In this document: positions 43,690 through 47,758 of the stretch, in pieces
How the letters are laid out: the number at the start of each line of letters is the position of its first letter
Numbering within the stretch: the stretch's first letter is position 1
NCBI GenBank assembly: GCA_040222015.1
Contig: JAVJWO010000020.1
Location: 1-49,261, forward strand
Length of the DNA: 49,261 bases
Direction of reading: 5' to 3'
From: Coleofasciculus chthonoplastes F2-STO-03
Lineage (GTDB): Bacteria > Cyanobacteriota > Cyanobacteriia > Cyanobacteriales > Coleofasciculaceae
The notes under the pieces: generated by a model
Told to the model about the DNA's origin: nothing
Seen by the model: the letters and a program-made list of their open reading frames with translations, nothing else
Databases searched by the model: none
Translations under genes and position numbers: made by a program

Positions 43690-43986
43690 TCACTTAGATG
43701 TGGGCTTAAATCGTTTAATAACATAGTTTTGCAACCATTGTTGCAAATCATCTGGGGTTGAAAAGTCTAGCATAGCATCTCCGAGGTCTTCTAATTGCTT
43801 TAAAGTCAACGCCTCAATTTCTACTTGTATCTCAGGGGAAATTTGTTCCAGGCGACGATTTAATAGACGCAGGATAATTGCTCTCTCTCCTTCTTGGCGA
43901 CCTTCTTGACGACCTTCTTGACGACCTTCTTCTTTCGCTTCTTGATAAAAACGGGTTTGTTGAGCCTCAGCAACAATCTCTAACAT
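43690..43986 (-). CDS. Putative intragenic small protein (RpnS-like antitoxin, 98 aa)
   Basis: Internal SD GGGAGGAG (43996-44003) lies 9 nt before an in-frame ATG at 43986, just ahead of the EGRQ repeats. Confidence 0.55.
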   Translation of the reverse strand: MLEIVAEAQQTRFYQEAKEEGRQEGRQEGRQEGERAIILRLLNRRLEQISPEIQVEIEALTLKQLEDLGDAMLDFSTPDDLQQWLQNYVIKRFKPTSK

Positions 43987-44328
43987 CGCGATAATCTCCT
44001 CCCGAGTCAACTGCGGGAACTTATAAACCATTGTAGTGATGATTAACTCTATTATTAACCCTGGCGGCAAATCAGGATCGCTTTGTGCTTGTTCAAGTAA
44101 CTGCTTTGCCAAGTTGGGTGCATTCTTGGGGGAAGCTACAATCAATTGCAGCAGACCAAGACTCAAGGGTCGGTTCTCTTGGTTGCTCAATTCATTCAAG
44201 TAGAAACGCCGCACTTGTGGGCTATTGAGTAATGCCCGATACAAATGGGTTTGGATGGGTTCTAAACTCCGACGGGGAAAGAGAACCACCGCTTGCCAAT
44301 CGGCTATAGTTGGATTTTGTTCCAAGTA

Positions 44329-44430
44329 TAGCAACCGCCATGGCTGTTAGGACACATCATTTATGTAGAGACCAAACATGGACGGTCTCTACAATGGTGC
44401 CGAACGTCCTAATCGATGTGTCTATTGCTA
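44329..44430. mobile_element. 102-bp MITE with TA target duplication and an internal GTAG palindrome
   Basis: TA|TAGCAA...TTGCTA|TA, with internal GTAGAGACC...GGTCTCTAC. Confidence 0.88.
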
Positions 44431-44811
44431 TACATGAAAATTTCTGCAAATAGCCGATGGTACAGTAAGGGGTCATCTTGGAACTGAAATTCAGCGAAGA
44501 AAACGGGTAAATTGGGTGGGTCTGGGGGCGGTAAAAACACCCCGTCAATACGGTGAGCCGTTTGCTTGATTTCGATAGACTTAAACTCATATCCTTGAAA
44601 GTCTGGCTGACCAATGAGTTCAAAAAAAATCGAGGGAGCCGTTTTGAAAATTCGGTAGAGAAGGGAGTCAGTTTTCACAGCAATCAGGTCTAAGTATTCG
44701 CCGTTGGTATCAATTCTAAACGTTTCATTTCAGTATAGGTAGCGATCAAGATGATCGCACTACAAGGTTTAAATGCCGAACAACTGAAAAGGCTTTCCCT
44801 GACATACTCAT

Positions 44812-45285
44812 TCAATGACTGGAAAAAGCTAAAAGGTATTCTTTATGAATCTCAACTTCTTGTTTTATAAATCCACTAAATTTTGCCTTGCTTTTCGTAA
44901 ATTTAATCTTATTTTCACCTTCACAGTAAGAGTAAATCGGTGGATCATCCCCTTCAGAAAGGATAAAAAAGCTAAACTGATACCCCTGGTGCATGAAGAA
45001 AACAAAAGCATCATTGGGTAGGGGTTTATGGAAATTATTTTCCTCTAATAACTCTATAGCCCATTCTCTCAAATAGGGGAGATGCTTAAAAAAGCAGTCA
45101 GATCCGCGCAAGAATTGACCCGCACTATGCCCCATCTCCAGGAGAAATTCTTGATAGGCTTTGGGTAGAGAAATCCCTAACTCCTGTTCAAGTTTACTGA
45201 TTTCGGAAGCTGTACACCAAACTAACTCATCTGGCTGTACCAGTCCTAGTTGTTGTAGCTGTTGTTTAACTGTATCTAAATACAC
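44812..45285 (-). CDS. SMI1/KNR4 (SUKH) family immunity protein
   Basis: Motifs EISKLEQELGISLPKAYQEFL..G, HQGYQF and DDPPIY. Confidence 0.88.
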   Translation of the reverse strand: MYLDTVKQQLQQLGLVQPDELVWCTASEISKLEQELGISLPKAYQEFLLEMGHSAGQFLRGSDCFFKHLPYLREWAIELLEENNFHKPLPNDAFVFFMHQGYQFSFFILSEGDDPPIYSYCEGENKIKFTKSKAKFSGFIKQEVEIHKEYLLAFSSH

Positions 45286-45433
45286 ATCTATATCCTCGAT
45301 TCAATCTTGCATCAATAATATCTCTTAAGTTTAATCACTGCATCCCAAGTTTTTGAGAATAGGGGGAGAGATGGGACTCATTATGCGTCTTTCCTCATAC
45401 TATCTCCCCCCCCATCCTCTCCATAATTAGCAA

Positions 45434-45844
45434 TCAAACGGTATTGACATCGTTGATGTTCAGGGCGATGTTTGGAAACCGCTGACGAAATTGCTCGATG
45501 ACGTAGCTACAGGATACACAAGGCGGTCGTTCCGTGACTAGATTGACAGTACCTTGAATCTCTGGAGTTTGGGCATATCGAGAAGCCAATTCCTCAAGAA
45601 GTTTATACTCACTATCATAAGCTCGTGAATGTCCAGGAGGAAATTCAAAGGTTTCAAATAAAGGCTGCTGAGGTAAGCTAATAGTTCCGGGACGAATTGC
45701 CTGACCACTGACGGCAGTGAGTTCACCACTGTCATTTCCAATCTGAAACTCAGCAATAGCAATATTTCGGCGCTGTCATATCCCCAACTCATGCCGAAGC
45801 TGAGCAAGGCGAATACGCCAGCGTTCTGGGTTATTCTTTGCCAT
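45434..45844 (-). pseudogene. Stand-alone toxin-type deaminase (BURPS668_1122 / Toxin-deaminase-like) with one in-frame TGA
   Basis: Manual translation gives 137 codons: MAKNNPERWRIRLAQLRHELGI*QRRNIAIAEF...AVSG...HSRAYDSEYKLLE...GTVNLVTERPPCVSCSYVIEQFRQRFPNI...*. It has the RxxDSE and PCxxC motifs. Confidence 0.8.
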
Positions 45845-46042
45845 GTTAAGTTAATTTAGTTAAGTTAATTTAGTGATTTAGTACAGAAGTTAAAATAATA
45901 GTCCACTTAATACTATAGCGCTTTTTAATGTGTTTTGCCTTCTTGAAGCAGCAGCAGAGGCGCTAAGAGATAATTTCTAGCTAGTAGCTGGAAACGAGAT
46001 GAAATAATGAGACTAAATAGAAAAATTTTTGCTCAATTGGGC

Positions 46043-46070
46043 GTAGGGGCAATTCATGAATCGCCCCTAC
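46043..46070. repeat. GTAG-REP palindrome downstream of groEL
   Basis: GTAGGGGCAATTCATGAATCGCCCCTAC. Confidence 0.85.
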
Positions 46071-46081
46071 ACCATCAGCGA

Positions 46082-47758
<1,677 letters not shown>

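Follow-up and report, generated by a model that had tools for sequence, protein, structure and literature searches.

Here we describe a two-gene cassette of cyanobacteria in which a compact deaminase gene of the BURPS668_1122 family (PF14424) stands alone, free of any toxin-delivery gene, and is followed by a SUKH (SMI1/KNR4) gene. Our favoured reading, which we hold on balance and with modest confidence, is that the tip of a polymorphic toxin became a self-contained intracellular cassette resembling toxin-antitoxin (TA) systems, and that the genome from which we start holds a dead allele of the toxin. That starting point is a stretch of 49,261 nucleotides from Coleofasciculus chthonoplastes F2-STO-03 (hereafter the window), part of a 99.99% complete genome (G000).

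The deaminase gene and its SUKH partner

The deaminase frame runs from an ATG at 45844 to a terminal TGA at 45436-45434, and an in-frame TAA at 45853-45851 lies three codons 5' of that ATG (Table 1). With an X at the internal break, its translation scores 65.3 bits against PF14424 (cut-off 29.6), while the ORF that follows on the same strand, 45285-44812, scores 44.3 bits against SMI1_KNR4 (cut-off 25.4). The initial annotation, made from the letters alone, had proposed a frame at 45844-45434 with its own ATG, an upstream in-frame stop, a TGA at codon 23 and deaminase motifs, next to an intact SMI1/KNR4 gene; all of these are present as it quoted them, and the profile comparison and structure prediction that it suggested recovered both the deaminase family and the fold. 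R74, D77, E79 and K81 of the RxxDxExK motif in helix 2 are intact, and C109 and C112 supply the CxxC of helix 3; D77, E79, K81, C109 and C112 are invariant in 72/72 aligned sequences. In a six-frame translation of the genome (7.72 Mb), the combined pattern R-x-x-D-x-E-x-K...CxxC occurs a single time, in this gene. The motif is printed for the family as CxxCxS in a table of Iyer et al. (PMC3239186), and its last position is a Tyr in the window deaminase.

Structure was predicted from an intact natural allele (P0002) with AlphaFold and a 72-sequence alignment, giving a model with pLDDT 89 that supersedes a single-sequence prediction of pLDDT 41. In the model, a strand at residues 38-45 is followed by a long loop and a helix at 78-89. 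Among 48,161 chains its best match was PDB 9c63, a cytidine deaminase of the P. syringae T6SS that we take to be SsdA (Z 9.0, rmsd 3.1, 115 aligned), and it also matched DddB (9k3e; Z 8.5, rmsd 3.1, 90 aligned), DddA (6u08; Z 7.2, rmsd 3.0, 100 aligned) and a tRNA deaminase (Z 7.3); Foldseek led to AID/APOBEC. Sequence identity to these solved toxins (9c63, 9k3e, 6u08) is 10-14%, and the deaminase found no match in a sequence search of the PDB, in NCBIfam or in the PADLOC 2023 models. Judged by profile and predicted structure, the window gene is a BURPS668_1122 deaminase with the deaminase fold.

The SUKH gene is the sole PF09346 match in G000. Its protein has SUKH-family Pfam matches only, with no DNA-binding domain, and matches PADLOC weakly (PDC-M40A, E 0.005). 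SUKH is listed as an immunity partner of the BURPS668_1122 deaminases (PMC3239186). The gap between the two genes shrinks to 2-14 nt in 11/27 relatives, and in several of them an AAGGAG-type ribosome site stands right past the toxin stop, an operon layout. Promoter and terminator signals at the window cassette scanned at or below the level of shuffled sequence, with no sigma-70 promoter above it, and the sole RNA contig, 265 nt from run X10, could be DNA and is too slight to show expression.

Table 1. Features of the cassette and its surroundings in the window
Feature	Position	Strand	Remark
DUF2887/Rpn-like gene	43690..44678	-	split at ~44329-44430 by ~100-bp repeat
SUKH (SMI1/KNR4) gene, intact, presumed immunity protein	44812..45285	-	157 aa, GTG start
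Spacer, deaminase to SUKH	45286..45433	-	148 nt
Stand-alone BURPS668_1122-family deaminase gene (predicted)	45434..45844	-	136 codons + stop, one nonsense codon inside
Premature TGA, codon 23 of deaminase	45776..45778	-	one base from sense codon in G008
AT-rich non-coding leader, groEL stop to deaminase ATG	45845..46081	-	237 nt
groEL	46082..47716	-	context; named from translation

On the same strand as groEL and 237 nt past its end, the cassette occupies a site that varies within the genus. Two of nine genomes carry the cassette there; in G006 the DUF2887 gene follows groEL directly, with no cassette, and other genomes have an HNH gene (G003) or a DndD-like gene that falls below the NCBIfam cut-off (G001, G002, G005), seen at L039:2413-3570 and at L038, L040, L041 and L132. 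This variety suggests a hot spot for conflict genes. The ~100-bp repeat that splits the DUF2887/Rpn-like gene of the window has 42 near-full-length matches in the genome. Viral contigs held no relative of the cassette, and a plasmid search gave six records, all below 60% identity; a carrier element was not found.

Stand-alone cassettes in related genomes

A length-limited protein search returned 65 relatives of 85-163 aa, most of them at 60-74% identity; since such a search is blind to long forms, the stand-alone state was tested at the DNA level. At 27 of 27 genome loci an SMI1_KNR4 gene lies directly 3' of the deaminase (L015 runs to the contig end), and in 22 of them the deaminase frame is whole, spans 132-196 codons, has an ATG ahead of strand 1 and follows AT-rich sequence. 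When the N-terminal parts of 22 long toxins were compared with these loci (2.9-12.4 kb), none of the 27 matched and the RHS control L003 did; no delivery gene, parent toxin or homology stub was seen in any of them. The loci form 15 flank groups, with neighbours that include rbcS, rpsN, leuB-like, mutL and dprA genes, and the nearest titled locus to the window is L010 (92%), a Coleofasciculus record. SUKH is likewise downstream in 16 of the first 18 metagenome loci, the other two being short contigs, and among 401 genomes of the order the close-clade cassette occurs in 14, with SUKH adjacent in all 14.

Longer homologues are more distant. Twelve long toxins (at least 287 aa) were found at 29-43% identity among the best 8000 candidates scored, and a wider search gave 2141 relatives, the nearest longer ones being P0079 and P0081 with 269 and 255 aa. 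In an 87-row tree, built on subsampled rows and 139 columns, with SH-aLRT as the only support for the core clade and with weak deeper forks, SH-aLRT reaches 96 for a group of 17 short rows and 85 for one of 24, and neither contains a long toxin; the short proteins P0084, P0093 and P0109 fall outside this clade, and FastTree on 201 of 241 domains grouped the sequences similarly. Only a few, unconserved residues precede helix 1, and an N-terminal trafficking or pre-toxin domain is absent, given the TAA just ahead of the ATG and the short frames of relatives. Because SUKH follows the deaminase in all 27 loci, no delivery gene accompanies it, 22 frames are whole, the contexts number 15 and the clade holds no long toxin, the stand-alone form is, on these comparisons, a lineage trait rather than decay.

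The initial annotation had described a gene without a delivery domain, which holds for the window and equally for the 27 loci, and had weighed it against the prospect that homologues would turn up only as tips of long toxins. Instead, every one of the nearest relatives is a short gene that stands alone beside SUKH, and the intact alleles that it proposed to look for in related cyanobacteria exist at those 22 loci. Its other option, an orphan tip cassette, which we take in the classical sense of one that awaits recombination into a full-length toxin, we largely reject as very improbable. BURPS668_1122 deaminases have been described as C-terminal tips of toxins or as standalone cassettes, so that the form itself has a precedent, but in the available text those cassettes neighbour a complete toxin gene (Iyer et al. 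2011, PMC3239186), whereas parent and stub are missing from every locus here, the own ATG is conserved, no long member lies inside the clade and neither RHS nor PT-HINT profiles match G000.

Delivery in trans deserves more weight. PAAR_motif and Colicin_D were also not found in G000, but the genome does hold two contractile injection system (CIS) loci, L129 (contig C85) and L130 (C23), both with sheath and tube genes, the latter adding spike-tip, gp25 and VgrG-like genes and the former Pvc16; as a spike-tip gene is present, the PAAR blank does not mean that delivery systems are absent. The cassette could thus be an interbacterial weapon, loaded onto a CIS or released by lysis or in vesicles, with SUKH protecting kin. 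The sheath, tube, baseplate and spike-tip genes of these loci suit such a role, as do DUF4157-like regions on five contigs of G000, a protein that fuses DUF4157 to the deaminase (P0078) and the toxin-first gene order, which is that of polymorphic toxins; lone SUKH genes are kept, and the one-sided loss reported below also fits a secreted weapon with useful immunity. The few unconserved residues ahead of helix 1, however, offer no evident loading signal, and the 91 neighbouring proteins scanned at the relatives' loci, out of 175 listed, included no CIS gene. We regard delivery in trans as unlikely; because G000 encodes contractile injection systems, intracellular action is nevertheless something we infer.

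Other stand-alone deaminases were met along the way. A second, divergent PF14424 group (L004-L009, L114-L125; for example L005:23-1389 and L114:676-1926) has frames of ~145-165 codons. The gene after them encodes a protein of 240-330 aa that no Pfam family matches above its cut-off and that ESM Atlas scores as Imm5-like (0.91, a lead only); in the tree, a long branch separates the group from the SUKH clade. It seems the commoner group: 52/401 genomes match, and most of the 38 outside the close clade have short frames. At rank 13 for P0002, ESM Atlas lists a 129-aa MafB19-type deaminase cluster of 180 members, commonest in Cyanobacteriota, which hints at a third stand-alone group. At L020:1938-3705 and L066, the deaminase-SUKH pair has a stand-alone Colicin D domain with an immunity gene directly 5' of it and a ScaI-type endonuclease 3' of it; G288 lacks the deaminase but keeps SUKH, the endonuclease and the immunity-like gene.

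Selection, one-sided loss and the premature stop

Both genes are under purifying selection. Over four dS bins (Nei-Gojobori, 24 sequences), median dN/dS is 0.35, 0.41, 0.21 and 0.18 for the toxin and 0.24, 0.21, 0.21 and 0.14 for SUKH, values that come from 109 of 276 pairs, which are not independent, the rest being saturated or outside the bins. Loss is one-sided: the toxin is damaged in 5/27 loci, each in its own way (in one a replaced 5' end next to a tnpB gene, in the others a nonsense codon, a frameshift, loss of the ATG and insertion of a repeat), and SUKH is open in all 27. Among the 14 close-clade genomes of the 401, a sample that overlaps the 27 loci, the toxin is broken in four, G000 included; where a close-clade toxin was present, the neighbouring SUKH was never found broken. 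Close SUKH genes with no adjacent deaminase occur in G288, G016, G061 and G040. The one in G016 (L133:2215-4758), from another genus of the family, stands directly behind groEL, is 67% identical to that of the window and has no deaminase remnant beside it. A frameshift just before the CxxC, with SUKH intact, is common to several genomes and metagenome contigs (L077, L078, L149-L151, L154) and is an inherited dead allele.

A toxin that brings long-term benefit, or persists selfishly, at a short-term cost would give this pattern, which also fits retained immunity. SUKH might then be the selected unit, guarding against RHS-delivered deaminases of other cyanobacteria, while the toxin is a slowly decaying passenger. 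SUKH is always intact and the toxin often broken or deleted, toxin dN/dS exceeds that of SUKH in 3/4 bins, and possible attackers exist: G051, G131, G109 and G091 encode deaminases in long frames of 448-1928 codons, accompanied by a related SUKH, with RHS-HINT confirmed in G051, whose toxin falls outside the stand-alone clade. Against this, toxin dN/dS stays well below 1 even at dS 0.8-1.5, the five invariant residues hold in 72/72 sequences and most copies are intact, which makes a passenger toxin improbable.

The copy in the window is probably such a loss, judging by its reading frame. Codon 23 maps to a loop that joins helix 1 to strand 1. Another genome of this genus, G008, carries the cassette at the equivalent site, its deaminase gene intact and codon 23 a sense codon, and P0002 (five member sequences) is likewise intact and 99% identical. 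Contigs from three of four sequencing runs compared cover the codon (X1, X2, X5): it is open in X2 and X5, and X1, which could derive from the source sample itself or from a sister strain, keeps the stop and has 8 other letters and 4 gaps relative to the window over 1.4 kb, at depth 19.6. Because G008, P0002, X2 and X5 are open and X1 keeps the stop, we read it as, most likely, a recent nonsense allele. A sequencing error is unlikely, as the assembled contigs of X1 have the same stop, and a recoded TGA was rejected, as both genes end in TGA and relatives carry a sense codon. Downstream of the stop, the only frame that opens with ATG, GTG or TTG has 51 aa, starts at 45589 and lies 3' of the D-x-E motif. 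None of the three codons occurs ahead of that motif, so a restart at one of them would give no enzyme. The window copy is for this reason probably a dead pseudogene allele. The initial annotation had put forward a 'repaired' protein as a candidate enzyme, a repair made needless by intact natural alleles (P0002, L002).

Proposed mode of action and known systems

From the family's known chemistry and the layout of the genes, a history and a mode of action can be proposed. In cyanobacteria, the deaminase tip of a polymorphic toxin, together with the SUKH immunity gene 3' of it, would have become a free two-gene cassette, the toxin acquiring its own ATG just ahead of helix 1 with no export or pre-toxin segment; the cassette now occupies many unrelated chromosomal sites. 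In intact copies, we infer, toxin and SUKH would be co-expressed, and SUKH would bind and block a Zn-dependent enzyme in which D77, C109 and C112 may hold the zinc and E79 act as the catalytic proton shuttle. The toxin is likely a cytosine deaminase and SUKH its antidote. A shortage of SUKH, the presumed trigger, would free the enzyme to deaminate cytosines in nucleic acid of its own host, with ssDNA as the likeliest target, and to stop growth in the manner of a TA or abortive-infection module. Hosts might escape by breaking the toxin and keeping SUKH, and G000 may hold such an escape allele.

The substrate finds some guidance in the literature. Members of PF14424 deaminated ssDNA cytidine in a base-editor screen (10.1101/2023.05.21.541555), and YwqJ is a delivered ssDNA deaminase (10.64898/2026.09.29.755374). 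In an in vitro screen of 175 enzymes, five other families gave nearly all DNA activity, the available text leaving the inclusion of PF14424 unstated (10.1101/2023.06.29.547047); weak DNA activity or an RNA target is therefore possible. Deaminase toxins also mutagenise survivors (PMC7901873), and together with the conservation of the gene this might point to a tuned mutator or an RNA-editing enzyme of benefit to the host, with SUKH as regulator, but a presence in only 14/401 genomes, at many sites and with repeated loss, makes such a role very improbable. The comparisons gave no direct support to the defence or mutator function that the initial annotation had raised.

Should the cassettes act inside the cell, as we favour, they would mark a route from secreted weapon to TA or defence module, and nucleic-acid deamination would be a toxin chemistry unlisted for type II TA in the available text of one comparison (PMC3482391). 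It is also possible, if rather doubtful, that cyanobacteria more than once turned deaminase tips into intracellular TA or anti-phage modules, in the SUKH clade and in the Imm5-like group, reaching about one in ten genomes of the order; together the two would form a class of TA or abortive-infection systems that work by deamination, each built around a complete natural enzyme of 130 aa. What makes the find useful is the clade, not the pseudogene of the window. The clade offers dozens of whole natural 130-aa enzymes with presumed cognate inhibitors, from a family that has seen little biochemistry and for which a sequence search found no solved structure, so that the family substrate is directly testable and compact base-editor candidates are at hand.

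A literature search, with most subscription papers and bioRxiv supplements outside it, found no published description of the delivery-less cassette; in NCBI, single members carry the annotation of a deaminase-domain protein, and ESM Atlas holds short PF14424 clusters from cyanobacteria. The domains are known ones, in an apparently undescribed, conserved, delivery-less arrangement. The solved deaminase toxins (9c63, 9k3e, 6u08) have their fold in common with the window family. SsdA is DYW-like, DddA SCP1.201-like and BaDTF3 Pput_2613-like (PMC7901873), all of them linked to interbacterial delivery, and a placement of SsdA in BURPS668_1122 is wrong. Compared with the BURPS668_1122 members described in PMC3239186, the clade has its own ATG, no parent toxin and many unrelated sites.

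TA systems are small and export-free, usually with the antitoxin first, as a rule a transcription factor, and with autoregulation (Zhang et al. 2012, PMC3482391), and no deaminase is among the domains that the available text of that paper lists as common to polymorphic toxins and TA systems. The cassette is like a type II TA system in its two small single-domain proteins (136 and 157 aa), its lack of trafficking parts and its patchy chromosomal distribution, and unlike one in that SUKH is 3' of the toxin in 27/27 loci and has no DNA-binding domain. The closest precedent comes from Salmonella, whose Rhs toxin-immunity pairs are able to function as type II TA (Starsta et al. 2020, PMC7043789). 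Both consist of a polymorphic toxin with its immunity gene, and action inside the producer, a finding in Salmonella, would apply to the cassette on our reading. The Salmonella pairs stay in the rhs locus under internal promoters, whereas the cyanobacterial cassette is detached from delivery genes and its toxin is a deaminase rather than an Rhs tip.
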